From Escherichia coli (GTDB lineage Bacteria; Pseudomonadota; Gammaproteobacteria; Enterobacterales; Enterobacteriaceae): DNA of 64,000 nucleotides. The notes beneath the pieces were generated by a model. That model saw only the letters and a program-made list of their open reading frames with translations, was not told the origin of the DNA and did no database searches. The first letter of the stretch is position 1; each line of letters begins with the position of its first letter. Location of the stretch: NCBI RefSeq assembly GCF_003018115.1, contig NZ_CP027457.1, one strand, 5' to 3'. This document shows, in pieces, positions 22,893-54,289 of the stretch. Both the position numbers and the translations under genes were made by a program.

Positions 22893-22980
22893 GGTGAGGT
22901 GTCCGAGTGGCTGAAGGAGCACGCCTGGAAAGTGTGTATACGGCAACGTATCGGGGGTTCGAATCCCCCCCTCACCGCCA
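22893..22980 (+). tRNA. serX: tRNA-Ser (anticodon GGA)
   Basis: 88-nt sequence with 7-bp acceptor stem ggtgagg / cctcacc, long variable arm, anticodon loop ctGGAaa, TPsiC ggttcgaatcc and 3' CCA. Confidence 0.93.
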
Positions 22981-24179: not shown

Positions 24180-25480
24180 CACGCTGGCTGCCAGAGCAAC
24201 CTTTCTGCATTCACCCTTTTGTAAAGAGTTTATGTTTATCGGTATCAGCGATTAATCAGGCCTGATACTGACATGATTTTTGTCGTATTTACGTCCGTGA
24301 GCGGCTATTGCCCACACCGTTCGCGCCAGCTTGTTTGCCATTGCGACGATTGCCACGCTGGCCGGACGACGCTTTTTCAGTTCGGTTATCCATGGACCAG
24401 GTTCTTTGGTCAGTAATGCTGCCGCCCTTGCACCATGAATAAACAGGGTTCGCAGATATTTATCACCACGTTTGCTTATTCCCAGCAGGCGGATTTTTCC
24501 TCCTGAGCCTGTCTGTCTGGGCACCAGACCGATAAACGCGGCGAATTCCCGTCCCGACTTAAAGGCGGAGGCGTCTCCCATCGTGGCAACGGCAGCGGTG
24601 GCGATTAACGGCCCCACGCCTGGGATGTTCAGTAACCGCTGACAGGTTTCATTCTGTCTGGCTACCGCCTGCAACTGCTTCTCAATGTGGTCAAGATGTT
24701 CATCAAGTTCAGTAATTCGCTGATATTGTTCATCCAGCATGTTTATCAGGTAGAGCGGTAGCCGCTCCTTCAGACGCTCCAGGGCTTCCGGCACCTCCTT
24801 CGCCAAAGCAGCACGCCCCTTGTGCGTCGTTTCACCAAATTCCAGCAAGAGACCGTGAAGCGCGTTTATTTGTGCTGTCCTGAACTTCACCAGTTGCTGG
24901 CGCATTCGGTGTAACCCCAGCGTAGCCTGTTGCTCCTCGCTTTTAACGGCGACGGATTTTACCGGCTGCTGAACCGCCAGCCAGATGGCTCGGGCGTCCA
25001 TCACATCGTTTTTATTTCCCATCACGAATGCTTTGACGAACCGGCCTTTGAGTAATCTGACCTTATGTCCCAGTTTCTGAAGCTCACGCGCCCAGTGATG
25101 AGAACCCCCACAGGCCTCCATGCCGATAAGGCAGGGTTCACGGTTGCTGAAATATTCAAGGAATTTCTCACGCTTAACCTGCTTATCGATAATCTCTCCG
25201 GTATGTTCATCAACGAAATGCACCTGCATAAGATGTTTTGCAATATCAACCCCGACAGGGATATATTTCATGGTGTGGATCCTCCAGTCTGTTGGGAGCG
25301 AAACGCATCCCGTTGGGCACGATGATGCCGGAAATCTGCGGGGATCCACACTCATCTACTTAATCCCCGAGCGGCTCATTTCATAATGTTGGGATGCGTT
25401 CATTACATTTCCTTTTTGCAGATAAATGAAAACGCCAGCCCTGTTCAGGCTGACGTCAGTGGAATAAAGTCTGGTGAGTG
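24180..25480 (-). mobile_element. IS110-family insertion sequence, boundaries approximate
   Basis: Single DEDD-type transposase gene with about 200 bp of structured upstream non-coding DNA; no terminal inverted repeats recognised, as is usual for IS110; ends not mapped. Confidence 0.55.
24252..25271 (-). CDS. IS110-family transposase/recombinase
   Basis: 339 aa from ATG 25271 (MKYIPVGVDIAKHLMQVHFVDEHTGEI...) with GGAGG RBS 6 nt upstream; track ORF is extended 28 codons. Confidence 0.85.
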   Translation of the reverse strand: MKYIPVGVDIAKHLMQVHFVDEHTGEIIDKQVKREKFLEYFSNREPCLIGMEACGGSHHWARELQKLGHKVRLLKGRFVKAFVMGNKNDVMDARAIWLAVQQPVKSVAVKSEEQQATLGLHRMRQQLVKFRTAQINALHGLLLEFGETTHKGRAALAKEVPEALERLKERLPLYLINMLDEQYQRITELDEHLDHIEKQLQAVARQNETCQRLLNIPGVGPLIATAAVATMGDASAFKSGREFAAFIGLVPRQTGSGGKIRLLGISKRGDKYLRTLFIHGARAAALLTKEPGPWITELKKRRPASVAIVAMANKLARTVWAIAAHGRKYDKNHVSIRPD

Positions 25481-27401: not shown

Positions 27402-27893
27402 TTAAAGCAGTCCGTGTTCCGCAAAGGAGAAAACCTGGCTGCCACCGACTATCAGATGGTCCGGCACCCGGATATCCACCAGAGCCAGTGCCTGTACCAG
27501 ACGTTCCGTGATAAGGCGGTCTGCCTTGCTGGGTGTGACTTCACCGGACGGGTGATTGTGCGCCAGCACCACGGCAGCGGCATTGTGATACAGGGCGCGT
27601 TTAATCACTTCCCGGGGATGGACTTCCGTGCGGTTGATGGTGCCGGTGAAGAGGGTTTCACCGGCAATCAGCTGATTCTGGTTGTTCAGATACAGCACCC
27701 GGAATTCTTCACGCTCCAGTCCCGCCATGTTAAGAATCAGCCATTCCCGTGCCGCACGGGTGGAGGTGAAGGCCACGCCGGGTTCATGAAGATGGCGGTC
27801 CAGGGTTTTCAGGGCCCGCAGAATGAGACTGCGCTCGCCGGGCGTCATCTCTCCGGGCAGAAAGGAAAGCTGCTGCATTGTTCCTGCCTCCAT
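27402..27893 (-). CDS. yeeS: RadC-like JAB/MPN domain protein
   Basis: 163 aa with JAMM motif HNHPSGEVTPSKAD. Confidence 0.8.
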   Translation of the reverse strand: MEAGTMQQLSFLPGEMTPGERSLILRALKTLDRHLHEPGVAFTSTRAAREWLILNMAGLEREEFRVLYLNNQNQLIAGETLFTGTINRTEVHPREVIKRALYHNAAAVVLAHNHPSGEVTPSKADRLITERLVQALALVDIRVPDHLIVGGSQVFSFAEHGLL

Positions 27894-28379
27894 TCAGTCG
27901 ATGATGCGCATAATGGCGCTGCATTCCGGATGCTGCAGGGCGTAATCCCGCAGCCGGTAATAATGGACCGTCATGGCATAACACTCCGTACGACAGGCAT
28001 GATGACTGTACGTCATCAGACAGGCAGCAATGCCGGCGGCTTCCGGACTCATTTCAGCGCGGTTACCGTTCATGGCATTGAACAGTACCCATTTTTCGTC
28101 ATCATCGTCATCCGGTTCAGGTGCCATAAATGCCCCGCCGTTGTTCAGGGTGTACAGATTCCAGATACCACCGCAGTAGTCTTCGCACAGACGGTCCATC
28201 CAGCCGAAAACACGGGGCTCCAGGGTCACCCACTGTGGAATGAGGCCAAAATGCTGCGGCCAGAAGCTGATGCGCTGTTCATCAGGGACTATGGTGGCAA
28301 CCAGCTGAGGCTGGTCATTCCCTGATGCAGCGGTTACGGAAACAGAAGGAGTGGTGGAATTATGCAAGACGGTTGTCAT
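27894..28379 (-). CDS. antirestriction protein (ArdB/KlcA-like, YfjX family)
   Basis: 161 aa acidic protein; ATGA overlap with downstream radC-like gene. Confidence 0.65.
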   Translation of the reverse strand: MTTVLHNSTTPSVSVTAASGNDQPQLVATIVPDEQRISFWPQHFGLIPQWVTLEPRVFGWMDRLCEDYCGGIWNLYTLNNGGAFMAPEPDDDDDEKWVLFNAMNGNRAEMSPEAAGIAACLMTYSHHACRTECYAMTVHYYRLRDYALQHPECSAIMRIID

Positions 28380-28470
28380 GAGATGATTCCTTATAAAAAG
28401 TAAATGAATGGAAGAAACCCCGGGGGAAGGGACAGACGTGAGTCAGAACTGCGCTTTCAGGGAAAAGGCA

Positions 28471-29289
28471 TCAGCACATGCTCTCCAGCAGCGTTTCAGC
28501 CATCACCCACAATGCGCGGTTGAGCTTAATATCGGTGTCGATGCTGTGAATGGCCCGGGTATGGATACGTTTTCCTCTGGCACTGCGACCGGAAATCCCG
28601 CCTTTCAGCATATTCTCCTGGATGGTCTGATAAGCACTCCACAGGTCCTTACCGTAATCCTCCCGGCGTCGTGGCGTCAGAATGTCGGCGGTGGTGACGG
28701 GCTGATGTTCGTCACCATAACGGTAAGTCAGTGCCGCCTGTGCCAGCGCCTGGCGTGCCGGTGGCGGCAGAATCAGCGACTGCATGGCATCACGTTTCTC
28801 TTCAATCCGGTCAAAAACCCCCACCACCTCGTAAGCACCTTCAATCACCCTGTCCACCACGTTTCCCCGGTGTGGCACCCGGACTTCTCCCAGCGACTGA
28901 CCGCAGACCAGGCCATTGGTGCAGATGGCACGAAAATATCCGGGTAACATCTGGTAGCTGGATGAACCGTCATGGGAGTTGAGCAGAATAATTTCAGGCA
29001 CATGCTGACCGGTTATCTGTCCGGCCCGCCGCAGACGCAGCATATGTTTGGTATATTCCCGGCGGCTCTGGTCGCGCACACGGGTCTGGCAGGCGAAGAA
29101 CGGCTGAAAGCCTTCCCGCTGCAGATTTTCCAGGACGGTGATGGTGGGAATGTACGCATACCGTTCACTGCGGGAGGTGTGCCGGTCTTCTCCAAAAATA
29201 CTCGGGACGTGGTACATCAGTTCTTCGCGTGTCAGTGGGCGCTCCCGACGGATCTGATTTACATGACCAAAACGACTGGCTAATTGCAT
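28471..29289 (-). CDS. DUF932-like protein (YfjQ/YafZ family)
   Basis: 272 aa in the conserved CP4-like gene order. Confidence 0.6.
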   Translation of the reverse strand: MQLASRFGHVNQIRRERPLTREELMYHVPSIFGEDRHTSRSERYAYIPTITVLENLQREGFQPFFACQTRVRDQSRREYTKHMLRLRRAGQITGQHVPEIILLNSHDGSSSYQMLPGYFRAICTNGLVCGQSLGEVRVPHRGNVVDRVIEGAYEVVGVFDRIEEKRDAMQSLILPPPARQALAQAALTYRYGDEHQPVTTADILTPRRREDYGKDLWSAYQTIQENMLKGGISGRSARGKRIHTRAIHSIDTDIKLNRALWVMAETLLESMC

Positions 29290-29688
29290 ACTTTGCTCCT
29301 TATGAATGAGTTAGCGGTATAAACGAAAAGGCCGCGTCTCCCGGAGAAGACGCGGCCTGATGGATGAAATGAAGACGTTTATTGCCTGAGAATTCCCTCA
29401 CTGGCGAGATACGGATTTAGCTGTTTTCCGGCATCAGATTCAAAATTCCAGCACCGCCAGCGCAACTGACCTTCAGCGTTGCGGATCACCAGACGAAAAT
29501 GCGTACCCGGGTCATCCTTGATAAACACATTGCGGTAAGCGGTTATGACAGCAACCGCCTGCCCGTATGAGAAAGATCCTTCAGCCAGGACATACTCTGT
29601 GTGTAACCCGGCATATCTGGTTTCTCCTGATAAATAGCCTCTGCCACAACGTATGGCAGAGGCTGAAGCATGAAACTGACTTCAGGGA

Positions 29689-30144
29689 TCAGTTAACATT
29701 TTTTCCGGAAACGGTAATCAGCAGTGGATGGTAGTCCTGGGGATCGAAAACCGATAACGGCAGACTGACACGATGGCCGTTACTTTCTTCAGTTGCTTTA
29801 ATGATTTCGGTTGTGGCGACATTTTCCACGCACTCCGTTTCCAGAAATGCGTCTGTGGTTCGCGTGGCATTACTGTCACCAAAGGCTTCCGTTTCCATTT
29901 TTCTGGTCACCAGCGTCTGACCATATTTGTCTTTGAGTTGCAGAGTGATGGTGAGGGGGCCAAATCCTTCATAGTTTCCGCCATTATCCAGCCGGAACTG
30001 GTAGGCACAAATATTTCCCGGGAGCCATATCGTATCTGTATTGCGTATACTGATGTAACGTTGATCCTGTGCCCGGAGTGGGGCAGACCACGTTAACCCC
30101 AGAATGAAGGCGGTAATCATGCAGGTTTTGAACAGGTGAATCAT
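29689..30144 (-). CDS. hypothetical secreted protein (YfjT-like)
   Basis: 151 aa with signal peptide MIHLFKTCMITAFILGLTWSAPLRA. Confidence 0.5.
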   Translation of the reverse strand: MIHLFKTCMITAFILGLTWSAPLRAQDQRYISIRNTDTIWLPGNICAYQFRLDNGGNYEGFGPLTITLQLKDKYGQTLVTRKMETEAFGDSNATRTTDAFLETECVENVATTEIIKATEESNGHRVSLPLSVFDPQDYHPLLITVSGKNVN

Positions 30145-30219
30145 GGTATTTACCTCTCTGAGTCATGACGATGACACTGACAAATCAGGTGATAAAACGT
30201 AAAAGGCGCAGAATAGCCG

Positions 30220-32742
30220 TTATGCCGGTAACTCCGGGGGTAATGCTTCTTCCAGTCGGTTAACCATCTTGCCGAGATGGGATACATCATATTCCATGAC
30301 GGGGCGTTGCCTGATGATACTGACCACCAGTGGTTTGATTAACATATTGGTCGCGGCCCGTTGTTGTATACCGGCGGCGAAAATGATCTCCAGAGCATTC
30401 TGATCGATAACACGGGCCAGATTCGCGTTCAGATTTTCAATCTCATGTCCGGTCAGCAGGAAACTGCCGGCAAGCCATGTCACCTGCTCCTGAATCATTG
30501 CCAGAATTTTGACGCGATCTTCTTCAACCAGCGCTCCGGCAATTTTTCCTGATACAGCGGAGGCAATCATTCCCCCCAGAACACCGCCAACCACACGTCC
30601 TGTCAGTGCACCAAATGGTCCCAGTGGACTGAACAATATCCCGCCCGCCACTGACCCGACAGCACCACCTGCCACACCGGAAGATGCCACGGCAAGATTC
30701 CTGATGAACTGCGCACCGGAGATCCGTCCCCGCAACATTTTGATCATGTCAGGGCCGGTTGTGACAGCGACCAGTGCCAGAGATGTCACCAGCGTACCCT
30801 TCATCACTTTGTTCAGGGCACTGATATTTCCTGCACCGGTCCCCTTCTGAAGCGCCTGCCGGACAGTCGGGCTGGCCGTCGAAAAATCAATATGCTTCAG
30901 CATACCCTGAACAACACTGAGCCGGTGAAGTTGCTGGGTTGTGACGTAGACAGCCAGTGTGCGGGTGAAGGTTTTTCCTGCCTGGACAGCAGCTGTCTGC
31001 AGGGCAGCATCGCGATCGCCGGTGCTGAGCCAGAAGACCGATGCCGTCAGGGCAAAACTGATCCCTCCGGCCGCCAGACTGACAACCGCCCCCTCGGCAA
31101 TATCATAAGTGACCGATTCGATGGTCCCGAACCGGGTGATATTACGGGCCTGGGTATAAGTCAGATGTCCCCGACGAATCAGCCGGGACGCTTCTGCGGG
31201 ATCGGTTACACCGGGTACTTTACCTTCGCGGATCTTATTCTTCATGGTTTCCACAGCGCCGGCATACTGATCACGGGGGACTTCCAGTTGCATGGGACCA
31301 TGATTTCCCATGTAACGATACTGTCCGTTTTGTCCGTCGAATGCCGCACCGACGCTACGGGCTGCAGTTGAACAATATTTCGTCTGGATTTCTGTTCCGC
31401 TGACCAGTCTGTCTGCTCCATTTCTGGCATTATTATCACCGAGGATCCGTGCGTTTTTCAGACGGACTCTGTCGACAATATGGTTTCCCCGTTCAGCGGC
31501 AAACCCATGTCCCTGCCCTCCGGAAGCAAACATTTTCTCATTTGTACTCCAGGTTTCCGGCAGTTTCATGAGAATCAGACCATTCGCCGTTGCATCGGAA
31601 ATAAAACCGGTGTAAGAACGTTCATAAATGTCCTGACACAGTGTTTCTGTTTCGCGACAAAGAGAGGAGCAGTACCATTCCGGATCCGGCTTATGATTTT
31701 CCGGGGCATGATGTACTTCTGTCAGCCCGCAGGAGGCACAGATACGAAGCTCATCCACGTGGTGGAATGATACAAAACGGCGGCCTTCTGAAAAGGGGTA
31801 CCAGTCACCGCCGTCCAGGCAACGATCGAGAAAATCGTCATTCGCTTCCGGTGATAAATTCAGGCGGTTCCGGAAGAGGGTTTTCAGTTCATCAGGGGTA
31901 AATGACAGGCTCTCTCTCAGCTTTTCGTTGAAACCCGCCATGTTTCTTTCATACCAGGCATTGTCCAGTAGCCAGTTTCCGTCTGCCAGTTCAAATTCCC
32001 TCAGCTCTCCCCGGGAAATCCGTTGTGAAATGAGTGTCAGCCAGATGCGCTCCGTCAGCGTTTCAGGAAGGCTGTAATCGTTTTGCAAACTGCTCAGCCA
32101 CGATTTACTGTTGAGCACCGGTTGTTCTTCCAGTGTCTGGCGGATGGCACTGGTCAGTCTTTTCAGCGCCTGGATCTGGCTGGCCGCCCATAGCAGCGTC
32201 ACTAATGCAGCCAGCCAGTACAACAACCCGCCCCACCACATCAGTGAGGGTGAAATATCGAACTGCAATGCGATCAATGGTGCGTATGCAGAACACGCCA
32301 TAAGGAAAAAAGCAGTATAAAAACAGCAGTAATACCCGTTAATTTCCTTGCTGATATCTTCAGGTGTGAGCCCGTTCTGCTGAATGGTTCTTATCTGCAC
32401 GGGAAGAGCCAGCAGACCAGCAGCGAGAGCGGTGGTCAGAATAAATTTTACAGAGTCAAAAGTATGAGCCTCCAGTGCGATATGTTTACCATCAAGTCCC
32501 CACATGAAGCTGATGATCATTCCGGCAATCGTCAGAAATACGCCTGCCAGCCAGCGAATATGGAATAACCGGGTTATGCGTTCAGTGATATAGCCAGCCA
32601 GTAAAGCCGGGCCGAACAGACACAGCAATACGAATCCTGCCAGCGCAGACGCCGTGCTGGTTAATGCTCTGAACAAAAGGCGAAGAATGGCAAATCCTGC
32701 GATCAGCAGAATCAGCGCGCCGACTATCTGTAACATAGTCAC
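30220..32742 (-). CDS. yeeR: YeeR-like inner membrane protein, full length
   Basis: 840 aa, multiple N-terminal TM helices and Gly-rich C-terminal segments; directly downstream of flu. Confidence 0.7.
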   Translation of the reverse strand: MTMLQIVGALILLIAGFAILRLLFRALTSTASALAGFVLLCLFGPALLAGYITERITRLFHIRWLAGVFLTIAGMIISFMWGLDGKHIALEAHTFDSVKFILTTALAAGLLALPVQIRTIQQNGLTPEDISKEINGYYCCFYTAFFLMACSAYAPLIALQFDISPSLMWWGGLLYWLAALVTLLWAASQIQALKRLTSAIRQTLEEQPVLNSKSWLSSLQNDYSLPETLTERIWLTLISQRISRGELREFELADGNWLLDNAWYERNMAGFNEKLRESLSFTPDELKTLFRNRLNLSPEANDDFLDRCLDGGDWYPFSEGRRFVSFHHVDELRICASCGLTEVHHAPENHKPDPEWYCSSLCRETETLCQDIYERSYTGFISDATANGLILMKLPETWSTNEKMFASGGQGHGFAAERGNHIVDRVRLKNARILGDNNARNGADRLVSGTEIQTKYCSTAARSVGAAFDGQNGQYRYMGNHGPMQLEVPRDQYAGAVETMKNKIREGKVPGVTDPAEASRLIRRGHLTYTQARNITRFGTIESVTYDIAEGAVVSLAAGGISFALTASVFWLSTGDRDAALQTAAVQAGKTFTRTLAVYVTTQQLHRLSVVQGMLKHIDFSTASPTVRQALQKGTGAGNISALNKVMKGTLVTSLALVAVTTGPDMIKMLRGRISGAQFIRNLAVASSGVAGGAVGSVAGGILFSPLGPFGALTGRVVGGVLGGMIASAVSGKIAGALVEEDRVKILAMIQEQVTWLAGSFLLTGHEIENLNANLARVIDQNALEIIFAAGIQQRAATNMLIKPLVVSIIRQRPVMEYDVSHLGKMVNRLEEALPPELPA

Positions 32743-32856
32743 TCCGTGATGAATATCATGTTATTGTGAATGCCAGTGAATGTGGCACTGAAACGTTTTC
32801 CCCCGTCCGGGTCCCGGTCATGATGACCGGGACCACAGAGAGGCAATGCAGAATTA

Positions 32857-35800
32857 TCAGAAGGTCACATTCAGCGTGGCCTGACTGCTATAACCTTCAG
32901 CGCTGCTGCCGTTGATGCTGTGGGCATAACCGGCCTGAACGCCCAGGGTGATATTTTCCCGGACACGGGCTTCCAGTCCGGCCTGCAGATCCAGTGAAGT
33001 GCCATTCTGTGAGGGAGAGAACGTCATCCCGCTGCCTGCGGTGGAGGTCCCCACACGCATATCACCCCGGGAGCTGAAGGTGCGGATAACGGAAGGCTGT
33101 ACCCACCAGTTCACCGGCAGTTCACGCACACTGTGTTTTGCACTGTCACGCAGGGGGGCACGGGATGAGGTGCCTTCACCAAAGGTCATATCGTTGTGGC
33201 TGCCCAGACGGAAACCGGCACGCACATGCTGTGCACTGCCATGCCCGAACTTCACATAACCGGCGTTGTCCTTACCGTCATCCAGCGAAAGCCCCTGCCA
33301 GGTGTACTGCAGCCGTGGCTCCAGCATCAGGTTGTCAGTGATACTGAAGGGCAGACCGGTTTCCAGTGAGCCCAGCCAGCCCCAGCCCCGTGCGCGGAAG
33401 TCGTTATTGCCCGATGACGCTTTCATACTGTGGCGGGTTCCCTGTGCCACAATGTCAGCCCACAGGCCGGAGGAGGTGTGTGCCAGGTTCATATATCCGC
33501 CCAGGCTGCCGGCATCATCCCGGACCGTGCCGGCGCGGGAGCCGTCATCATCCTTAACATCAACGGAAGAATGGCCTGCAGCACCATACACTCCTGTCGT
33601 CAGTGACATACCGGCGACCTCTGTTCTGAGCAGGTCACCCTCCAGACGGACGAAGCCATAGCTGCCGCTGCTTTCCGGCGTGGCCCCACGGGCAATACCG
33701 CCGTTGTTATCGTGACCGAGATGGCCGCCCTGAATGCTGAGACGGACGCTGTTATTTTCACCGTTTACACCGGTCTGATGGCTGCGGGAGCCTGCCAGAA
33801 TCCGGTCATAGTCCATTGCCTGTGTCAGCATGGAGGCGTACAGGGGGACTTCAGCACGATAACGTTCTTCACTGCGCAGATACCAGCTCTCATCACTGTC
33901 CCGGTTGAGGGTGTAGTTAAAGGCCCCGGCCTGCAGCATATTCCCCTGGACAAAAGCCCCTTCCTCCGTGGTGGCACCGTTAATGGCCTCAACCACCTGA
34001 ATACCCTTACCGGTGGTCGCCAGCCCCGTACCACTGTTGCCGGCGTTCACCAGATTCAGGATGGTTTTTCCGGTTGCCCTGCCACCGTCAATGACCAGTC
34101 TGTCAGCATTGTTCTGCGCCATATCCGGACGTACACGCAGGCTGATGGTGCCATTCTGCCCGTTCAGGTTTTTCACCTGCAGAGTTGTCGGAACGAACTT
34201 CCCTGTGCGGGCGGAGGTGAAATGAATCTGTCCGGCATGGCTGAGGTCATCCACCACCGACTGAACCGTGGCGTTATCGGGAATATTCCAGGTGGCACCA
34301 GAGGCGAGAGTGACATTCGTGGGGTCAATGGCACCGTTCAGCACTGTGCTGCCGGTCAGCTTCAGGGCCGTGCCGCGCTGAGCAATGACATCCGTGGTGA
34401 CGGTACTGTCGTTCAGCGTCAGCGTGCCTTCATTCAGGTTGACGGCTTTCTGGGTGAGTGTGGTGTTGCTGACAGTGAGTGTTCCACTTCCTGATTTTTC
34501 CACCCTGCCGTTACCGGTGAGAGAGCCTCCCTGCAGGAGTGCATCGCCTTCACGGATGGTCAGGGTATCGTTGTTCACCGTCTTCCCGGAAAGGGTAAGT
34601 ATGGCGCCGTTATTCAGCGTGGTGGTGCCCGCCAGTGTGCCGCCCCTGGCGGTGAACAGTCCGCCATTTACCGTGGTATCCGTGGCCGTATCACCGGCGT
34701 TCAGCGTGAATGAACTGCCTTTTTCCAGCATCAGGGCATCCGCCTGACCGCCTCCGATACGGAATGCCTTTCCGTCGCTCCGGGTACCACTGACAGCGGC
34801 ACCGGAATCGGCCAGCAGTACACCGCCATTTCCCATGGATACGGTGGTGGCGGTGCCACCGTTGCGGACATCCAGCGTTCCGCCATCATCCACGCGGGTA
34901 TTAGTGGCTGTGTGTCCGGTCAGCACATCCAGGCGTCCGCCATTTTCCAGTACGACATTATCAGCTTTACCCTCCACAACAGAGAATGCTCCCAGGCGGT
35001 TTATGCCGGTAACGGTTGCAGCCGTACTGGTAACCAGTGCGCCGCCCTGCTTCAGGGTGACATTCGTGGCTGTACCACCGGCGTCCACCTGCAGTCTGCC
35101 CTTCTGATTAACGGTGGTATTCCCGGCCACACCCCCGTTTTTGACAATCTGCCAGCCGTCACTGTTCACAACAGTGTCAGACGCTGTACCGCCGTTGTGC
35201 ACATACTGGTATCCCCCATTCAGCGTGGTATCCAGTGCGTGACCATGTACAGTCTGGTCGCCGCCGGCATAAACCACAGTGGTATTTGCCGTTCCTTCAG
35301 TTCTCACAATCTGGCGACCGTTTTTATTGATGGTTGTGCGTACGGCATCCCCGCGAACAAACTGCCCGGTATCACCGTTTTCTGCATCCGGTCCCCCTTC
35401 CGCCCCGGTATTAACAACGGTATCCGTTGCCACTGTACCGGGCTTGACGACCTGCCAGCCCTTATCATTAATGACGGTTCCTGTGGCTATCGCCCCCTCA
35501 TGCATCCACTGTTCGCCACCATTCAGCGTGGTGTTCACTGCCCGTCCCTGAAGGCTCTGTCCGCCTCCGGCACTGATAACCGTGTCTGAGACACTTCCAC
35601 CGGGGTTCACTCTCTGAAGACCACCACTGGTGACAGTCGTTTTGTTGGCTGTTCCGCTATCCTGTACCCATTGCCCGCCGGTATTGGCCTCATTGTCCGG
35701 CCCGTACTCCAGACCGGTACTGATGGTCATTCCGTTGACCGTACCGAAGACAATCTGGTTGTCATGATTTGTCAGTGTTCCGCCGTTCACGGTTTCTCCC

Positions 35801-35976
35801 GCCTGTACAACCGTGTCAGCAGCCAGTGCCGGGACTGACGTGACAGCAGCAAGAGACAGCGCAACCGCCACACCAGCGCGTTTTCCCCGTGAGCGGGCCA
35901 GTTCGGAGGCCACCACCAGGGTGCCCGTAATGTGATTCCATACCAGCCTGTAGCTGGTGTTCAGATGTCGTTTCAT
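32857..35976 (-). CDS. flu: antigen 43 self-associating autotransporter adhesin
   Basis: 1039 aa from ATG 35976 (MKRHLNTSYRLVWNHITGTLVVASELARSRGKRAG...), repeat passenger domain, C-terminal beta-barrel ending ...ATLNVTF; track ORF extended 25 codons. Confidence 0.95.
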   Translation of the reverse strand: MKRHLNTSYRLVWNHITGTLVVASELARSRGKRAGVAVALSLAAVTSVPALAADTVVQAGETVNGGTLTNHDNQIVFGTVNGMTISTGLEYGPDNEANTGGQWVQDSGTANKTTVTSGGLQRVNPGGSVSDTVISAGGGQSLQGRAVNTTLNGGEQWMHEGAIATGTVINDKGWQVVKPGTVATDTVVNTGAEGGPDAENGDTGQFVRGDAVRTTINKNGRQIVRTEGTANTTVVYAGGDQTVHGHALDTTLNGGYQYVHNGGTASDTVVNSDGWQIVKNGGVAGNTTVNQKGRLQVDAGGTATNVTLKQGGALVTSTAATVTGINRLGAFSVVEGKADNVVLENGGRLDVLTGHTATNTRVDDGGTLDVRNGGTATTVSMGNGGVLLADSGAAVSGTRSDGKAFRIGGGQADALMLEKGSSFTLNAGDTATDTTVNGGLFTARGGTLAGTTTLNNGAILTLSGKTVNNDTLTIREGDALLQGGSLTGNGRVEKSGSGTLTVSNTTLTQKAVNLNEGTLTLNDSTVTTDVIAQRGTALKLTGSTVLNGAIDPTNVTLASGATWNIPDNATVQSVVDDLSHAGQIHFTSARTGKFVPTTLQVKNLNGQNGTISLRVRPDMAQNNADRLVIDGGRATGKTILNLVNAGNSGTGLATTGKGIQVVEAINGATTEEGAFVQGNMLQAGAFNYTLNRDSDESWYLRSEERYRAEVPLYASMLTQAMDYDRILAGSRSHQTGVNGENNSVRLSIQGGHLGHDNNGGIARGATPESSGSYGFVRLEGDLLRTEVAGMSLTTGVYGAAGHSSVDVKDDDGSRAGTVRDDAGSLGGYMNLAHTSSGLWADIVAQGTRHSMKASSGNNDFRARGWGWLGSLETGLPFSITDNLMLEPRLQYTWQGLSLDDGKDNAGYVKFGHGSAQHVRAGFRLGSHNDMTFGEGTSSRAPLRDSAKHSVRELPVNWWVQPSVIRTFSSRGDMRVGTSTAGSGMTFSPSQNGTSLDLQAGLEARVRENITLGVQAGYAHSINGSSAEGYSSQATLNVTF

Positions 35977-36189
35977 CAGCTTTTCCTTACAGAGGGTGAA
36001 TAAAAAAGCCGGTACCCACAAATGTGGATACCGGCAGGTACAAAACAGCATGGTCAGATAAAGTGGTTTTTCCCGGACATAAATGCTTCCCCTCTCTCAT
36101 CCGCCAGAGAAGTATCAGTCCGTTGTGTGCAATTCCGTTCTGCATGATGAAGAGATTCAGCTGCCTTTTCGCAGGCCATTAACCACCAT

Positions 36190-37502: not shown

Positions 37503-38228
37503 TCAGTCCTTAAGTTTATTCATAGAAAGCCGCTCTTGGCGTTTAAGCTCATTTAAAGTGAAAAAAGCACATTTATTAGATAAAATATAAATAGTTCCTA
37601 CTAACCGATGTAAGCGCCTCATTTTTTCGGGCATAGAGAATTCAGCATTTTTGACAAACATTAAAGAATCAACCCCAGCAGAGAACATATATTGTAAACT
37701 TTCCATATTAAAAGCCTCTAGTGGATTTACTTCGTTAATATCAATACTATTAACAGACCTCTCTATTTCGAGGTAATCTTCACTTGTCATTGAATAGTCT
37801 ATTTTATGAGCGAATTTATTGCGGATAGAATTCAGCTTAACTAAAGAATTTGCAATTGAGAGAGGTAAACCTAAAGCAACACAGATCTCCAGTTTTGGAG
37901 TAAAATATCGTGATGGTTTAACGAACTGCTCAGTACCAGGCTTCCTAACATTGTTGATGAATACTTCCAAGAAATTCTCAATCAATAGGCTAAGTCTTAG
38001 CAAGACTGATGCTTCGTCATTTATACTTAGTAAAGGTGCAAATTTTTCTGCGTCAAGAAAGAAACCGAGGTCATTATTAATCGCTACATATCCAGTTAGA
38101 TTGTTATTTGACTTCATATTCATAAAAACCTTATCTTGTATATTAGCGGCATATTGTACCATAAATTGAATCGTGGTTTGTTCTAAGAATGGACACAAGA
38201 ACTTCCTCTCCTCACTCATAAGAGACAA
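37503..38228 (-). CDS. AT-rich hypothetical protein with HEPN-like Rx4H motif
   Basis: Track ORF of 241 aa (TTG start); likelier start ATG 38123 (MNMKSNNN..., AAGG RBS); motif LNSIRNKFAHKIDY fits the HEPN Rx4-6H signature; AT-rich codon usage. Confidence 0.45.
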   Translation of the reverse strand: MSLMSEERKFLCPFLEQTTIQFMVQYAANIQDKVFMNMKSNNNLTGYVAINNDLGFFLDAEKFAPLLSINDEASVLLRLSLLIENFLEVFINNVRKPGTEQFVKPSRYFTPKLEICVALGLPLSIANSLVKLNSIRNKFAHKIDYSMTSEDYLEIERSVNSIDINEVNPLEAFNMESLQYMFSAGVDSLMFVKNAEFSMPEKMRRLHRLVGTIYILSNKCAFFTLNELKRQERLSMNKLKD

Positions 38229-38230
38229 CC

Positions 38231-38267
38231 ATACTCAAATCTCCCACATTGCAGGAGATTTGAGTAT
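38231..38267. promoter_or_regulatory. perfect 14-bp inverted repeat in the divergent control region
   Basis: atactcaaatctcc (38231-38244) and ggagatttgagtat (38254-38267) separated by 9 bp; right arm contains the recombinase RBS (aggag) and first two bases of its ATG. Confidence 0.5.
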
Positions 38268-38868
38268 GAACACGTCACCGTGGAACAAAGACCGTATCAT
38301 CGCCCAAAAAAGACCACTTCAGATATCTCATATCTGGGAGATCCGAATCCGGCTTGAACTGGAAGGTAAAACGCGCGATTTAGCTCTGTTCAATATGGCC
38401 CAGGACAGTAAGCTTCGAGGCTGTGATCTGGTCAAACTCAAAGTATCGAATGTGGCATATGGTAGCTCGGTTTCAAGCAGAGAAACGGTGTTGCAACAAA
38501 AAACCGGTAACCTTGTGCAATTCGAGATAACCAAAGGGACAAGAGAAGCTGTTGCTGCATTGATAAAGCTTGGCAATTTGCACAGTAAAGACTTCTTGTT
38601 TCGGTCTCGGGTCGGAACTAATCGGCACATATCAACCCAGCAATACAGCCGAATTTTTCATGGGTGGGTAGAAAAGCTTGGTCTCGAAGCTTCGCTGTAC
38701 AGCACACAATCCATGAGAAGAACAAAACCTTACCTAATCTACAAGAAAACCAAGAATCTCCGGATCATCCAACTTCTGTTGGGTCATAAGAAACTGGAAA
38801 GCACGATCCGTTATCTGGGCATTGAAGTCGATGATGCGTTAGAGACCTCTGAATCGATTGAAGTCTAA
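38266..38868 (+). CDS. short (200 aa) tyrosine recombinase, FimB/FimE-like catalytic-domain-only architecture
   Basis: ATG 38266 with AGGAG RBS; Arg-I in SKLRGCDL, C-terminal LLGHKKLESTIRYLG with candidate catalytic Tyr; no N-terminal core-binding domain. Confidence 0.65.
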   Translation: MNTSPWNKDRIIAQKRPLQISHIWEIRIRLELEGKTRDLALFNMAQDSKLRGCDLVKLKVSNVAYGSSVSSRETVLQQKTGNLVQFEITKGTREAVAALIKLGNLHSKDFLFRSRVGTNRHISTQQYSRIFHGWVEKLGLEASLYSTQSMRRTKPYLIYKKTKNLRIIQLLLGHKKLESTIRYLGIEVDDALETSESIEV

Positions 38869-38910: not shown

Positions 38911-39026
38911 CTAACTAAGTTCATACAACATTGATTATTGAAGATTAGGTCAGAAATAAATACTTTATTTTGATAATTTAGTTACGTTAGAACACCGCAA
39001 TGTACAACGTAAAAATGAGGAATAAT

Positions 39027-40388
39027 ATGACTCGGAGTGAAATAAACGTCTGGGATGAGAGAAGAGGTACCAATAGTCATCGAGTGGAGGAGATTCGATC
39101 TGAAGCTCAGCACGACCTTTCTCGATTGATTCACTCGTCTGCTTTCAGACGATTACAATCCAAAACACAGGTTCTTGGTCTGGGTGAAAGTGATTTCTAC
39201 CGCACACGACTGACTCATTCTATGGAAGTCGCACAAATCGGTTCAGGTCTTCTTGCTAAGTTGAAAATAAAATATAAAGGTAAAGAGCAAGAGCAATTTT
39301 TACCAGATAACGCTCTTATGCAGGCAGTATGTCTCGCACATGATATTGGACATCCTCCATTTGGTCACGGCGGTGAGGTAGCTCTTAACTACTGTATGCA
39401 GGATTACGGTGGTTTTGAAGGAAACGGTCAGACGCTTCGCATTCTCTCGAAACTAGATAAGTATACCTTAGAACACGGACTCGATCCTACACGCAGACTT
39501 CTGCTAGGCATACTGAAATATCCGGTTAAATACTCGGAGCTAGTGGTTACAAAAGACAGAATCCCGGTCACTATCGGATCACCAAACTGGCTCTTTAAGT
39601 CATCTGATTTTAAACCTCCAAAATGCTATCTAGATTCAGAATGCGATGTTGTAAAATTTGCTCTCTCACCATTTACTGAACAGGATCGGAGGCTTTTTAC
39701 TTCCGTTGAAGATGGTCAAACTAAATCCGATCATAAAAAAGCTTCTTATAAAGCTCTCGATACAACTATAATGGATCTTGCCGATGAAATTTCGTATTCG
39801 CTGCACGATTTGGAGGATGCTATTTCTCTCGGAATGGTGACACGAGAAATGTGGATGGAGCATTTCAGTGAACATGAAACCCTATTTACTAACTGCCATG
39901 GAAAAATATTTTCCGAAACATGCCAATCTGTAGCGGATAGCCTTTTTGGTGAAAGTTACAAGAGAAAAGAGTGCATCGGGATGCTGGTTCACCTGATGAT
40001 TACAAGCGTTGAGCTTATTACAAAGAATCCAGCATTCGAATGTGGCATGCTCAAATATAATGCGGTCCTTCCGGAAGCGGTCGAAGCACTACGGTTGAAA
40101 ATTTTCAAACTGGTCAAAAATAAAGTAATTAAGCATGAAAATGTACAGCAGCTTGAATTCAAGGGACAAAAGTTGATTGTTGAGCTCTTCGGTGTGTTGG
40201 CGAACGATCCGTGTCGGTTTCTACCTGCCTCAACGAGGGAAATTTACGAGCGGCAGACTAGCTTAGACAAGAAGGCTGGTATGCGAGTCATTTGCGACTA
40301 TGTTTCAGGGATGACTGATGACTATGCAACAAAGCTTTATGAGAAGATCCTTATTCCACGCAAAGGGTCTATTTTTGACCATCTCTAA
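39027..40388 (+). CDS. dGTPase-family HD-domain triphosphohydrolase (accessory paralog)
   Basis: 453 aa from ATG 39027 (GAGG RBS); motifs RTRLTHSMEVAQIG, LAHDIGHPPFGHGGE, C-terminal CDYVSGMTDDYA; AT-rich, not at the core dgt locus. Confidence 0.8.
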   Translation: MTRSEINVWDERRGTNSHRVEEIRSEAQHDLSRLIHSSAFRRLQSKTQVLGLGESDFYRTRLTHSMEVAQIGSGLLAKLKIKYKGKEQEQFLPDNALMQAVCLAHDIGHPPFGHGGEVALNYCMQDYGGFEGNGQTLRILSKLDKYTLEHGLDPTRRLLLGILKYPVKYSELVVTKDRIPVTIGSPNWLFKSSDFKPPKCYLDSECDVVKFALSPFTEQDRRLFTSVEDGQTKSDHKKASYKALDTTIMDLADEISYSLHDLEDAISLGMVTREMWMEHFSEHETLFTNCHGKIFSETCQSVADSLFGESYKRKECIGMLVHLMITSVELITKNPAFECGMLKYNAVLPEAVEALRLKIFKLVKNKVIKHENVQQLEFKGQKLIVELFGVLANDPCRFLPASTREIYERQTSLDKKAGMRVICDYVSGMTDDYATKLYEKILIPRKGSIFDHL

Positions 40389-41699: not shown

Positions 41700-44138
41700 A
41701 TGGCTATCAAAAAAACCGAACTCTATTCTTCCCTGTGGGCAAGCTGCGACGAACTGCGTGGCGGGATGGACGCCAGCCAGTACAAAGACTATGTACTGAC
41801 CCTGCTGTTTATGAAGTACGTTTCCGATAAGTATAAAGGCGATCCTTACGGGATGATCGTGATACCCAAAGGAGCCAGCTTTGACGATATGGTTGCGCTG
41901 AAAAATGACAAAGAGATCGGCGACAAAATCAACAAAATCATCCACAAGCTGGCGGAAGAGAACGGCCTGAAGGGCGTCATCGACGAAGCCGACTTTAACG
42001 ACGAAGATAAGCTCGGCAAAGGCAAGGAAATGATTGACCGCCTGAGCAAGCTTGTCGGTATCTTTGAAGGGTTAGATCTCTCCAGCAACCGGGCCGAAGG
42101 CGACGATCTGTTGGGCGATGCCTATGAATATCTGATGCGTCACTTCGCAACCGAATCCGGCAAGAGTAAAGGGCAGTTTTACACTCCGGCGGAGGTGTCA
42201 CGTATTCTGGCGAAGGTGATTGGTATTACTCCCGATACGCCGCGAGATGCAACGGTTTATGACCCAACCTGTGGCTCTGGTTCGCTGCTGTTGAAAGTGA
42301 ATGATGAAGCCCGGCGCGGACTATCGATTTTCGGCCAGGAGATGGATAACGCTACCAGTGCACTGGCGCGGATGAACATGATTCTGCATAACAATGCCAC
42401 CGCGAAAATCTGGCAGGGTAATACGCTGAGCGATCCGCAGTGGAAAGAGGCGAACGGCAAACTGAAAGCCTTCGATTTTGCCGTGGCGAACCCGCCTTTT
42501 TCCAATAAAAACTGGACCAACGGGTTGACGCCGAAAAAAGATCCGTTTGAACGCTTCGGCTGGGGCATTCCGCCGGAGAAAAACGGCGATTATGCTTTTT
42601 TGCTGCATATCATTAAAAGCCTGAAAAGTACCGGCAAAGGCGCGGTGATCCTGCCCCATGGCGTACTGTTTCGCGGTAACGCCGAGGCAAATATCCGTGA
42701 AAATCTAATCAAGCAGGGCTATATCAAAGGCGTTATTGGTTTGCCGGCCAACCTGTTTTACGGCACCGGCATCCCGGCGTGCATTATTGTGATTGATAAA
42801 GAGCACGCCCACAGCCGCAAAGGCATTTTTATGATCGACGCCAGTCGGGGCTTTATCAAAGATGGCAACAAGAACCGCCTGCGTAGCCGAGATATTCACC
42901 GCATTGTGGACGTGTTCAACCATCAGCGAACGGTGCCGGGCTACAGCCGGATGGTGCCCTCCAGCGAGATCGCCGGAAATGATTACAACCTGAATATTCC
43001 TCGCTATATCGAGAGCGGCGAGCCGGAAGATTTGCACGATCTGACCGCGCACTTACAGGGCGGTATTCCAGCACGCGATGTGGATGCTTTGCAGGATTAC
43101 TGGCGGGTATTCCCTGCCCTGCGCAACGTGCTGTTTGCTGACGACCGTTCCGGTTACTGTCGGGCGCAGGTGAACGCGCAGCAGGTGAAACCAACCATTC
43201 TGGCACATCAGGAGTTTAAGGATTTTGCCACCCGCAGCCTGCTACCGTTTAAAGCGTGGGTGAAAGAGGCAAGTCTGGAAGAGATTCGCAAAGGTGATAA
43301 ACCCAAAGCGCTGATCCACGATATCAGCGAGATGTTGCTTGTGCAGTACGCCAACAGTGAGTTGCTGAACAAGTACAGCGTGTACCAGATCCTGATGGAT
43401 TACTGGGCTGATGTCATGCAGGACGATGTGTATGTGATTATGCAGGATGGCTGGCAAGCCGCCGCGCAAATCCGCGAGCTTCAACCGGTGAAAGGCAAAG
43501 ATGGCAAAAACATCTGGAAAGAAACGCACGATTTCGAGTTTACCAAACAGCGCTACAAGGCCGATGTGCTACCCCGTTCACTAGTGGAAATTCGCTGCTT
43601 CCCGGAACTGCTGGATACGTTGAACCGCGCGCAGGAGCGCAGTGAAGAAGCCAGTCGTCAGCTAGCGGAACTCATCGAGGAGCAGGCAGGGGAAGAGGAT
43701 CTGCTGGCTGAGGCGAAGAACGATAAAGATAAGGTGACGCAAAAGCTGGTGAATGCCCGTCTGGCACAGTTGAAGAAAACCCCTGCCGACCCAGATGAGC
43801 TGGCAGTGCTGAACCGCTGTCTGGCGCTGATTAAGGCCGAGGCCAGTGCGAAAAAAGCGCTGAAAGCCGCACAGGAAGCGTTGGATCGAGCGGTATTTAA
43901 ACATTATCCCACGCTGGATGAAACAGCGATTAAAACGCTGGTAGTGCAGGATAAGTGGCTGGCAACGTTGCAGGCAGGAATCAAGGCGGAGATTGAGCGT
44001 ATTACCCAGCAACTGGCGTCGCGCGTAAAGGAGCTGGAAGAGCGTTATGCTGAACCGTTGCCAGCGCTTGAAGCCTCCGTTGAGGCGTTGAGCGAGAAAG
44101 TGGCCGGGCATTTGCGGGCGATGGGGCTGGAGTGGTGA
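41700..44138 (+). CDS. hsdM: type I restriction-modification N6-adenine DNA methyltransferase subunit, long form
   Basis: 812 aa; HsdM N-terminal domain, SAM motif DPTCGSGSLL, catalytic NPPF (VANPPFS); about 300-aa C-terminal coiled-coil-like extension. Confidence 0.9.
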   Translation: MAIKKTELYSSLWASCDELRGGMDASQYKDYVLTLLFMKYVSDKYKGDPYGMIVIPKGASFDDMVALKNDKEIGDKINKIIHKLAEENGLKGVIDEADFNDEDKLGKGKEMIDRLSKLVGIFEGLDLSSNRAEGDDLLGDAYEYLMRHFATESGKSKGQFYTPAEVSRILAKVIGITPDTPRDATVYDPTCGSGSLLLKVNDEARRGLSIFGQEMDNATSALARMNMILHNNATAKIWQGNTLSDPQWKEANGKLKAFDFAVANPPFSNKNWTNGLTPKKDPFERFGWGIPPEKNGDYAFLLHIIKSLKSTGKGAVILPHGVLFRGNAEANIRENLIKQGYIKGVIGLPANLFYGTGIPACIIVIDKEHAHSRKGIFMIDASRGFIKDGNKNRLRSRDIHRIVDVFNHQRTVPGYSRMVPSSEIAGNDYNLNIPRYIESGEPEDLHDLTAHLQGGIPARDVDALQDYWRVFPALRNVLFADDRSGYCRAQVNAQQVKPTILAHQEFKDFATRSLLPFKAWVKEASLEEIRKGDKPKALIHDISEMLLVQYANSELLNKYSVYQILMDYWADVMQDDVYVIMQDGWQAAAQIRELQPVKGKDGKNIWKETHDFEFTKQRYKADVLPRSLVEIRCFPELLDTLNRAQERSEEASRQLAELIEEQAGEEDLLAEAKNDKDKVTQKLVNARLAQLKKTPADPDELAVLNRCLALIKAEASAKKALKAAQEALDRAVFKHYPTLDETAIKTLVVQDKWLATLQAGIKAEIERITQQLASRVKELEERYAEPLPALEASVEALSEKVAGHLRAMGLEW

Positions 44139-45445
44139 TGGTGGATTTAATGGTGAATGAGCAACGATCAGGTACGGCGGGGAAAGATGTGCCTGCGGGG
44201 TATAAGCTGACTGAGGTGGGGGTGATTCCTGAGGATTGGGTAGTAATCTCTATTGATGACTGTACAACCAAAGTTGGTAGTGGAAAAACACCAACTGGTG
44301 GAGCATCTGTTTATATTGATAGCGGACGCCCTTTTGTCCGTAGCCAAAATGTTGATTGGGGAAGATTAGATCTCGCCGATGTCGTACATATTACAGATGA
44401 AACCCATAACACATTCTCTGGTTCTGAAATTCAGCAAGATGATGTTTTACTCAACATAACGGGAGCATCTATCGGCCGATGCGCTAAAGCTGATTTTAGG
44501 GTTATAGGTGGTAATGTTAACCAACATGTTTGCATCATCAGAACAGAGGCAAAAAAACTCTCCCCATCCTTACTGGTTGAATTAATCAATTCAAATTATG
44601 GACAAAACCAGATTGATAGTTATCAAGCCGGAGGAAACAGAGAAGGACTGAATTTTTCTCAAGTTAAAAATCTTAAGTTTGCTATTACACCAAACTCCCT
44701 TGAACAAACGGAAATTGTCAGAACATTAAATGATATTAATGCATTCACTCTCGCTCTGGAAAACTTAATTGCTAAAAAACAGGCCATAAAAGCCGCTGCT
44801 ATGCAACAACTACTCACCGGTAAAACCCGTTTGCCGCAGTTTGCGTTGCGCAAAGATGGATCTGCTAAGAGATATAAAAAGAGCAAGTTGGGGGAGACTC
44901 CAGAAGATTGGGCAGTTAATAATATTGGAGATTTATTCTCCATTACCGCAGGAGGAGATTTAAGACAGTCTGAATTCTCTAATATTCAATCTGAAAAACA
45001 TCTTTACCCTATTTATTCCAATGCAATTAGTCATTATGGTTTATATGGCTATTGCCAGAGTTATGATTATGTTGGTGACTATCTAACAATCACTGCGAGG
45101 GGAGGAATCGGCCATGCCGTGGCAAGAAAAGGAAGATTCTGTGCAATTGGACGATTATTAGTTCTTAGTCCAAAAGGAGATTCAAACGTAAAATTTTATG
45201 AAGGGTATATAAACCAATACTTATCATTTGCAAATGAGAGCACTGGAGTCCCTCAACTTACAGCTCCTCAAGTTGCAAAATATCCGGTTGTTTCCCCATG
45301 CATTGAAGAACAAACCGCCATCGCCACCATCCTCTCCGATATGGACAAGGAAATTCAGACCCTGCAACAACGTCTGGACAAAACCCGTCAGCTTAAACAG
45401 GGGATGATGCAGGAGCTGTTAACCGGGAAAACACGCTTAATATAA
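44132..45445 (+). CDS. hsdS: type I R-M specificity subunit
   Basis: 437 aa from GTG overlapping hsdM stop by 7 nt; two target-recognition domains separated by conserved repeats (LLTGKTRL twice). Confidence 0.9.
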
Positions 45446-45456
45446 AAGGGAAACCT

Positions 45457-46103
45457 ATGACTACAGCGCCAGCCTCAATCCGCAAAAAGCCCTGATCTGG
45501 CGTATCGTCCATCGGGACAATATCCCGTGGATTCTGGACAATGGTCTGCACTGCGGCAACAGCCCGGTGCAGGCTGCTAACTGGATCAATATCGGCAACC
45601 CGGAGCTTATCGGCAAGCACGCCGGACATCCGGTACCTGTCGGGACGGGCGGGACACTGCGTGACTATGTGCCATTTTATTTTACCCCCTTCTCGCCAAT
45701 GCTGATGAACATCCACAGCGGACGTGGCGGCATTAAGCAACGCCCCAATGAAGAGATCGTTATTCTGGTCAGCAGCCTGCGGCACGTGGCAGCACACGAC
45801 GTGCCCTTCGTGTTTACCGACAGCCATGCTTACTATAACTGGACCAACTACTACACCAGTCTGGATAGTCTGGACCAGATCGACTGGCCCATTTTGCAGG
45901 CACGGGACTTTCGCCGCGATCCAGACGATCCGGCTAAATTTGAACGCTATCAGGCAGAGGCGCTAATCTGGCAACACTGCCCGATCTCGCTGCTGGATGG
46001 GATAATTTGTTACAGCGAAGAGGTCAGGTTACAATTAGAACAATGGTTGTTTCAGCGTAATCTAACAATGTCCGTTCACACACGGGCTGGATTGGTACTT
46101 CTC
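45457..46103 (+). pseudogene. darT: DarT-like (DUF4433) ssDNA ADP-ribosyltransferase, N-terminus disrupted by frameshift
   Basis: ATG 45457 with AAGGG RBS reads [12 protein letters not shown] then stop; one extra A in the A5 run 45484-45488 would give [34 protein letters not shown]... continuous with track ORF 45567; candidate catalytic Glu in [10 protein letters not shown]. Confidence 0.6.
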
Positions 46104-47171
46104 ATGATCACATATACACAAGGCAATTTACTGGACGCACCGGTGGAAGCTCTGGTGAATACGGTTAATACCGTCGGTGTCATGGGGAAAGGCATCGCGT
46201 TGATGTTTAAAGAGCGCTTCCACGAAAATATGAAAGCCTATGCCCTCGCCTGCAAACAAAAGCAGGTGATCACCGGCAAAATGTTCATTACCGAAACCGG
46301 GGAACTGATGGGACCGCGCTGGATTGTTAATTTTCCGACCAAACAGCACTGGCGCGCTGACTCCCGCATGGGGTGGATTGAAGATGGCTTACAAGACTTA
46401 CGTCGATTTTTGATTGAAGAGAACGTGCAATCCATCGCCATTCCACCGCTGGGCGCAGGCAACGGTGACTTGAACTGGCCGGACGTTCGGGCGCAGATTG
46501 AATCTGCCCTTGGCGACCTTCAGGACGTTGATATCCTGATTTACCAACCAACTGAAAAATACCAGAACGTTGCCAAAAGCACTGGCGTAAAAAAGCTCAC
46601 TCCCGCCAGAGCCGCCATCGCTGAACTGGTGCGTCGCTACTGGGTATTGGGGATGGAGTGCAGCCTACTGGAAATCCAGAAACTGGCCTGGCTGTTACAA
46701 CGCGCCCTTAAGCAGCATCAACAGGACGATATCCTCAAACTGCGGTTTGAAGCTCACTATTATGGCCCCTATGCGCCCAATCTGAACCATCTGCTTAATG
46801 CGCTGGACGGCACCTATCTTAAAGCCGAGAAACGCATCCCGGACAGCCAACCGCTGGATGTGATCTGGTTTAACGATCAGAAAAAAGAACACGTTAATGC
46901 GTATCTGAACAGCGAAGCCAGAGAGTGGCTACCGGCGCTGGAGCAGGTCAGCCAGTTAATTGACGGCTTTGAATCGCCGTTTGGTCTGGAGCTGCTGGCA
47001 ACCGTAGACTGGTTGCTGAGCCGTGGCGAATGTCAACCAACACTGGATTCCGTTAAGGAAGGGCTGCACCAGTGGCCTGCGGGCGAACACTGGGCCAGCC
47101 GTAAGTTGAGGCTGTTTGATAATAATAATCTGCAATTTGCCATTAACCGCGTAATGGAGTTCCATTGCTGA
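46104..47171 (+). CDS. darG: DarG-like macrodomain antitoxin
   Basis: Starts [39 protein letters not shown] with [10 protein letters not shown] macrodomain motifs plus a C-terminal domain; in this sequence in frame with the DarT-like region, no intervening stop. Confidence 0.7.
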
Positions 47172-47189
47172 GGGTTTAAGGAGCGCCTT

Positions 47190-52225: not shown

Positions 52226-52255
52226 AAAACTCCTGACCGCATTATAAAAACGGTC

Positions 52256-54284: not shown

Positions 54285-54289
54285 TTGCT

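Follow-up and report, generated by a model that had tools for sequence, protein, structure and literature searches.

The yeeR gene of Escherichia coli belongs to an OxyR-repressed agn43-yeeR-irmA operon, which was defined by Moriel et al. in 2016 in a paper that left the function of YeeR open (PMC4807369). In K-12 the same locus, downstream of flu (agn43) in the CP4-44 prophage, encodes b2001, annotated as ‘inner membrane protein YeeR’. The K-12 gene is stated to be truncated both by Moriel et al. and by Bernabeu et al. in 2019, the latter also reporting that irmA, aec70 and aec71 are missing (PMC6480617), and the existence of an intact long form is thus already known and published. The long form is named ‘YeeR family protein’ in some RefSeq genomes, and long homologues carry the Pfam label PF27347 (YeeR_C), a family without an assigned function. 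Here we describe the yeeR gene found in a 64,000-nucleotide stretch of E. coli DNA (contig NZ_CP027457.1 of assembly GCF_003018115.1), which we refer to as the window. A full-length yeeR is common and annotated, earlier papers have set it against the K-12 remnant, and its observation by itself changes nothing; only the domain-level hypothesis presented below, that the conserved core of the protein is nuclease-like, is new.

The gene in the window is, with near certainty, the intact yeeR of a CP4-44-like integrative island located at tRNA-Ser(GGA) (window 22893-22980), where it is the second gene of agn43-yeeR-irmA, and the K-12 protein of 510 amino acids (aa) is the remnant of a 3.36-kb deletion (Table 1). 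An initial annotation of this DNA had taken the K-12 protein to be the shorter of the two and suggested a pairwise alignment, which bears this out: b2001 is 510 aa long and is not collinear with the window protein to its end. By BLASTP, K-12 YeeR aligns with window residues 1-507 without gaps and with 480 of 507 positions identical (95%), an identity and collinearity that identify the window gene as the orthologue of b2001, after which the K-12 protein has three unrelated residues (E-E-R) and then a stop. At the nucleotide level (blastn) the K-12 DNA aligns with window 33000-31216 (95.0%) and, past a gap, with 27854-26927 (89.8%), so that it lacks YeeR residues 508-838, irmA, the DUF905, DUF932 and antirestriction genes and the first 10 codons of radC. 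The K-12 junction, GGT AAA GTA GAG GAG AGA TGA, joins yeeR codon 507 to codon 11 of radC/yeeS; the start of yeeS is Met11 of the window RadC and its ATG overlaps the yeeR TGA, which is the overlap between yeeR (b2001) and the start of yeeS in MG1655. The deletion thereby cuts the most conserved part of the protein, removing the end of the core and the whole of the tail. In the window sequence a CCCGG repeat is found at each end of the deleted segment. A clean microhomology deletion through this repeat is not claimed, because the K-12 junction reads GAGG and is not the exact product of CCCGG recombination.

Table 1. Window coordinates of yeeR, the parts of its product, its operon neighbours and the segment deleted in K-12
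Feature	Coordinates	Strand	Basis or remark
yeeR coding sequence, 838 aa plus stop	30220..32736	-	open reading frame, RefSeq start, identity to WP_096148373.1 of NZ_CP027310.1
Residues 1-190, N-terminal membrane region, ~six hydrophobic segments	32167..32736	-	hydropathy, alignment A1, AlphaFold2 (AF2) helices with predicted local distance difference test score (pLDDT) 77-94
Residues ~205-330, two winged-helix-like domains in tandem	31747..32124	-	
Residues 333-367, Cys4 zinc-ribbon-like motif C333-x2-C336 ... C356-x3-C360, plus C367	31636..31740	-	
Residues 396-545, most conserved core (GGQGHGFAAE, NAKNGADR, IQTKY, PMxLEVPxDQY)	31102..31551	-	
Residues 546-838, helical C-terminal tail	30223..31101	-	
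agn43 (Ag43 autotransporter), upstream gene of the published agn43-yeeR-irmA operon	32857..36051	-	
irmA, downstream gene	29689..30144	-	
GC-rich hairpin with 11-bp stem, agn43-yeeR intergenic region	32810..32834	-	kept in K-12
Segment missing from K-12 CP4-44, 3361 bp	27855..31215	-	blastn block boundaries, junction alignment, annotations

Comparison across genera and genomes indicates that the ancestral form of YeeR is the long one, which is common and maintained by purifying selection. Among 5.8 billion proteins searched there were 413 relatives, including homologues of 820-850 aa with 30-67% identity and 95-100% query coverage, which are found in Enterobacteriaceae and Serratia (65-67% identity) and in Methylomonas, Pseudomonas, Shewanella, Herbaspirillum, Cupriavidus, Dyella, Stenotrophomonas and others (30-48%); the long form is considered ancestral, as the initial annotation had surmised, because these homologues span so many genera. 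Of 5426 complete E. coli genomes, 2160 (~40%) have the segment that K-12 lost (at least 80% covered) and 2187 have the N-terminal part at the same coverage, while the 100-nt K-12 junction occurs in at most 385. Between the window allele and that of ATCC 11303 the ratio of non-synonymous to synonymous substitution rates (dN/dS) is 0.25 over the whole gene and 0.22 within the segment absent from K-12. The converse view, in which the 510-aa K-12 protein is native and the long frame a secondary fusion or read-through, is vanishingly improbable: the status of K-12 as the reference annotation is the sole point that speaks for it, whereas the long homologues are collinear end to end in many genera, K-12 YeeR stops within the conserved core after reading three out-of-frame codons of the radC leader, four whole genes present elsewhere are gone from K-12 as well, and the deleted part shows purifying selection. 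The K-12 alignment, the deletion boundaries, the junction and the long homologues together refute it. Two single-contig proteins from raw-read assemblies (P0019 and P0020), ~93-94% identical to YeeR, carry YeeR_C plus another domain, either RadC (658 aa) or DUF932 (687 aa), and suggest further independent deletions in the region.

The initial annotation had placed a single open reading frame of 840 aa at window 30220-32742. The frame is indeed uninterrupted, but it lies on the minus strand and its product is likely 838 aa long. A plus-strand reading of these coordinates is ruled out by the many stops in that frame; on the minus strand the sequence is open from GTG 32742 through the stop at 30220-30222, giving 840 codons from the GTG. 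The minus-strand sequence upstream of the frame is cacGGAGtgactATG, in which GTG 32742 overlaps the Shine-Dalgarno sequence. Since ATG 32736 has GGAG five bases upstream, is the RefSeq start for yeeR (product of 838 aa, WP_096148373.1) and corresponds to the position at which K-12 YeeR also begins (MLQIVG), it is likely the start, and 838 aa the better length. The gene is 100% identical to the annotated coding sequence for WP_096148373.1 in E. coli 2014C-4135 (NZ_CP027310.1), as is the 3-kb region around it, and the window as a whole has 99.2% identity to that genome, with differences in IS66 content; the identical locus is called ‘YeeR family protein’ in some RefSeq genomes. An 840-codon open frame would arise by chance with a probability of (61/64)^840, ~1e-18 per start. 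The frame length, the identical annotated coding sequence, the homologues collinear from end to end and the dN/dS of 0.25 mean that yeeR is not a chance open reading frame.

The order of genes in the module is GTPase, agn43, yeeR, irmA, DUF905, DUF932, antirestriction, radC, DUF987, yeeU-family antitoxin, cbtA-family toxin, DUF5983 and DUF957, which is that of a CP4-44-like module. yeeR lies directly downstream of agn43/flu and upstream of irmA, so the linkage to flu that had been noted from the sequence holds, and its position between agn43/flu and the irmA/radC-cbtA module of a CP4-44-like island marks it, like its sequence, as the orthologue of b2001. Between the agn43 stop and the yeeR start there is a hairpin, GGTCCCGGTCA-TCA-TGACCGGGACC, with no T-tract after it. 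Within the published operon it may serve in processing or stabilising the mRNA, or as a partial terminator. At the tRNA-proximal end of the island there is an IS110-family transposase together with a frameshifted DUF4942 gene (24252-25355).

To describe the protein we used an alignment (A1) of 42 YeeR homologues together with hydropathy and AF2 models. The N-terminal transmembrane helices and glycine-rich C-terminal segments of the initial annotation are both recovered: six hydrophobic segments fall within residues 1-190, and glycine makes up 19% of residues 641-740 against 4-12% elsewhere. The membrane region is poorly conserved in sequence, yet it is present across the YeeR-type family. It is followed by a putative tandem winged-helix region, which is presumably cytoplasmic, and by a cysteine motif in which C333, C336, C356, C360 and C367 are invariant in all 42 homologues, a pattern that suggests a zinc ribbon. 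Beyond the core, the tail has a hydrophobic hairpin (546-570), a QQLHR motif (601-605), a glycine-zipper stretch at ~688-737 (window 30526-30675) with invariant glycines G694, G713, G717 and G721, and a terminal helical bundle, and it is the part that AF2 models least confidently. The overall architecture can be read as an anchor of ~6 transmembrane segments, two probable winged helices, a putative Cys4 zinc ribbon, the conserved core and a glycine-zipper tail of ~290 aa.

Membership of PF27347 is near-certain, if indirect, as the precomputed Pfam label is carried by a 96%-identical cluster representative (P0001) as well as by all the long homologues, and the window protein is taken as a typical member of this family with no differences from it. 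A Pfam scan of the whole protein, with a model set that did not include PF27347, gave the C19orf12-like glycine-zipper family PF20721 (E 0.008), which was rejected since its 16.4 bits are below the gathering threshold of 30. There was no match to the whole protein in NCBIfam or in a PDB sequence search, and a PHROGs scan gave a weak match of the glycine-rich stretch to a tape-measure family (phrog_167). The kinship with YfjW that had been suggested at the outset is ruled out by BLASTP, in which the best match to K-12 YfjW has an E of 0.03 and covers a hydrophobic stretch; YfjW (CP4-57) has in common with YeeR only that it is a large uncharacterised protein of a related K-12 cryptic element, and there is no detectable sequence similarity.

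The core is found well beyond the YeeR-type proteins. A profile of residues 392-548, searched against 1.84 billion representative proteins, matched 1023 clusters, 571 of them at E <= 1e-30, in proteins of ~450 to 1200 aa. The distance of the core from the N-terminus varies widely in these proteins, while ~290 residues (median; interquartile range 281-302) follow it and the motifs of the tail are kept in the consensus of 68 relatives with non-YeeR architectures. Because the position of the core varies while the length and motifs of the tail stay the same, core and tail form a mobile module that is joined to varied N-terminal regions.

Modelled alone, the core gives an AF2 prediction with a pLDDT of 83.4 and a predicted template modelling score (pTM) of 0.79, in which the elements follow the order helix, strand, strand, strand, helix, strand, helix. 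This predicted alpha-beta-beta-beta-alpha-beta arrangement would be that of the PD-(D/E)xK nucleases, such as Hjc, NgoMIV/Bse634I, NucS, CdiA-CT(1026b) and HamA. Foldseek comparison of the model returned PspGI, CdiA-CT, Hjc, VRR_NUC and I-Ssp6803I as top matches, none of them significant (best E 0.25). Nowhere in the protein is conservation stronger than in polar residues of the core (H410, E415, N418, D422, D442, R443, Q451, K453, E485 and D489), and five of these, which are invariant in 47 diverse family members, are placed in the model with E415 on helix 1, D442 just before strand 2, Q451-T-K453 on strand 3 and E485 on strand 4. In nucleases of the NgoMIV/Bse634I group the active site has an extra acid. 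The modelled positions of the YeeR residues, with invariant acidic and lysine residues where they would be canonical, would correspond to an E...D...(D/E)xK arrangement in which Gln takes the place of the first acid and an extra acid is present as in that group. On the strength of the model the core probably has a restriction-endonuclease-like fold; that it is an active nuclease is possible, if on balance doubtful.

What YeeR does with such a core can be proposed only tentatively, and the proposal, although the best supported of those considered, is more apt to be wrong than right. YeeR may be a membrane-tethered enzyme acting on nucleic acid and carried as mobile-element cargo for conflict or defence. 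The winged helices and zinc ribbon would bind or sense nucleic acid at the inner membrane face, the nuclease-like core would cleave it, and the glycine-zipper tail would mediate membrane association or oligomerisation. Carried in this way, yeeR would serve inter-element conflicts, as a defence against phage or foreign DNA, and YeeR would not be a partner of Ag43. A number of points weigh against this proposal. The core profile found no nuclease family among PDB sequences, and Pfam, queried with the core at E up to 10, gave only noise (L7Ae, SecD_1st), so that the idea of a nuclease has no sequence-level support; the fold scores are modest, Gln occupies the first position of the (D/E)xK triad, and, unlike in the known PD-(D/E)xK enzymes, the domain sits within a membrane protein. 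The invariant residues were placed by fold element. There is also no published phenotype for YeeR, the related defence system PDC-M09 (discussed below) is itself a candidate only, the Dyella homologue lies among housekeeping genes, and the YeeR_C module is rare on plasmids and phages. In addition, E. coli yeeR shares its transcript with an adhesin gene and is subject to OxyR/Dam phase variation (PMC4807369), an unusual arrangement for a defence gene.

The main rival to a nuclease is the view that YeeR acts through the membrane, as a stress sensor or as a pore-forming or depolarising (abortive-infection-like) effector; the core would then be inert or perform other chemistry, and the glycine-zipper tail and transmembrane anchor would do the work. 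We regard this as rather unlikely. The glycine-zipper and hydrophobic segments of the tail would fit such a role, as would the weak likeness to C19orf12-like proteins, to the glycine-rich segments of tape-measure proteins and to the C-terminus of LeoBC, the association of relatives with TerB, a domain proposed for membrane surveillance, and the Gln in place of an acid in the triad; against this, it is the polar residues of the core that are most conserved, as is typical of an active site, and the tail is the part modelled with least confidence. An accessory role for YeeR in the biogenesis or regulation of Ag43 and/or IrmA, or in how they function, is still less probable. Co-transcription of agn43-yeeR-irmA under OxyR repression in EC958 and CFT073 (PMC4807369), co-occurrence of yeeR and irmA with extra copies of hha (PMC6480617) and the presence of irmA next to yeeR in a Serratia island without Ag43 would favour it, whereas IrmA is secreted in a strain without functional Ag43 and YeeR (PMC4807369) and in strain 042 irmA has its own promoter, located downstream of yeeR (PMC9431211). 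Neither gene accompanies the homologues in Pseudomonas, Methylomonas, Herbaspirillum, Dyella, Cupriavidus and Stenotrophomonas. In K-12, as is generally known, flu produces functional Ag43 despite the truncated YeeR made alongside it. An accessory role is thus made less likely because neither IrmA secretion nor K-12 Ag43 needs an intact YeeR and because homologues elsewhere lack both neighbours.

The proposal of a membrane-tethered, nucleic-acid-directed enzyme carried for defence draws on similarities to defence systems, on the mobility of the core-and-tail module and on genomic context. The PADLOC model PDC-M09B, from a multi-gene phage defence candidate, gives weak matches to the window protein (E 8.1e-5 and 2.4e-4) and matches 28 of the 42 YeeR homologues (best E 1e-14); in one relative it spans core and tail, covering profile positions 21-399 of 480. 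PDC-M09B is homologous to YeeR over core and tail, beyond which YeeR has an extra N-terminal region of 390 aa containing the transmembrane segments, winged helices and zinc ribbon. The PDC systems are 145 candidates embedded in BREX, DISARM and type I restriction-modification loci (Payne et al., bioRxiv 10.1101/2024.01.29.577857), and ‘PDC-M09’ as a text term was not found in the literature.

A further comparison is with Bunzi, which is said to have been validated as a defence system by Millman and colleagues in 2022 and in which BnzA is reportedly a protein with TerB and transmembrane parts. Like YeeR, BnzA is a membrane protein of variable genomic regions, and its TerB region is matched by parts that are fused or adjacent to YeeR_C-module relatives; this TerB part is absent from YeeR. 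BnzA matches occur in 11 of the 68 diverse relatives, on TerB-like C-terminal extensions and not on the core, and for the window protein itself the BnzA model gave nothing at E up to 1. As the coordinates put the matches on the separate TerB extensions, the notion of a core tied to Bunzi was dropped. On an IS6-flanked stretch of the Lactococcus conjugative dairy plasmid pNCDO184A (locus L020, 4940-8780) there is a cassette of a WYL regulator, a YeeR_C homologue of 665 aa annotated as ‘glycine zipper family protein’ and a TerB-like protein of 285 aa. This looks like a candidate defence system, and no mention of such a cassette was found in the lactococcal defence literature searched.

The distant YeeR-type homologues occur as solitary genes, located beside HicAB, a TIR protein and IS66 in Methylomonas, RES-Xre in Pseudomonas, AbiGi and DUF4062 in Cupriavidus and transposases in Stenotrophomonas. 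The Herbaspirillum gene lies by an integrase element that adjoins BrxE and a PLD/helicase system; the short contigs of two short relatives give no informative context. In Serratia sp. UGAL515B_01 (locus L016, 9163-12520) irmA is upstream of yeeR in the CP4-44-like island that has no Ag43 gene, and since the two genes occur together there without Ag43, the link between yeeR and irmA either predates the one to agn43 or is independent of it. The lone phage match is a 650-aa protein with a YeeR_C core in an Oscillospirales phage (IMGVR 15609780; locus L021, 4401-6353), which has 38% identity over 61% of the query and whose gene comes just after the endolysin gene.

Taken at its broadest, YeeR_C could be an undescribed and widespread family (~1000 clusters at 50% identity) of membrane-associated PD-(D/E)xK nucleases that act as single-gene or TerB/WYL-associated immune or conflict effectors, although we would put this among the unlikely outcomes. 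If it were true, ~40% of E. coli genomes, many pathogens included, would carry an active copy that is phase-variable with Ag43, and loss in K-12 would explain the lack of characterisation. If YeeR does serve in defence, a phase-variable adhesin operon of pathogenic E. coli would be tied to mobile-element defence. The K-12 reference hides the real protein, as work on YeeR in K-12 examines a fragment cut inside the most conserved domain, and the putative nuclease active site provides a way to test the role of YeeR, which the IrmA papers left open.

Other parts of the window reveal a mosaic of defence genes in the island. An anti-phage dGTPase gene (39000-40388, plus strand) adjoins a 231-aa integrase fragment (38173-38868, plus strand), the two lying between the Ag43 module and the restriction-modification/DarTG block. 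A DarT/DarG pair (45567-47171, plus strand) lies between hsdS and hsdR of a type I restriction-modification system (within ~41700-50285); here a single 534-aa open reading frame runs from inside darT through darG, and a near-identical RefSeq genome annotates darT as frameshifted. The region at ~51000-64000 contains several IS66-family copies along with orphan contact-dependent inhibition (VENN pre-toxin/immunity) and colicin-D-like toxin/immunity modules, and it is this IS66-family region that differs from strain 2014C-4135.

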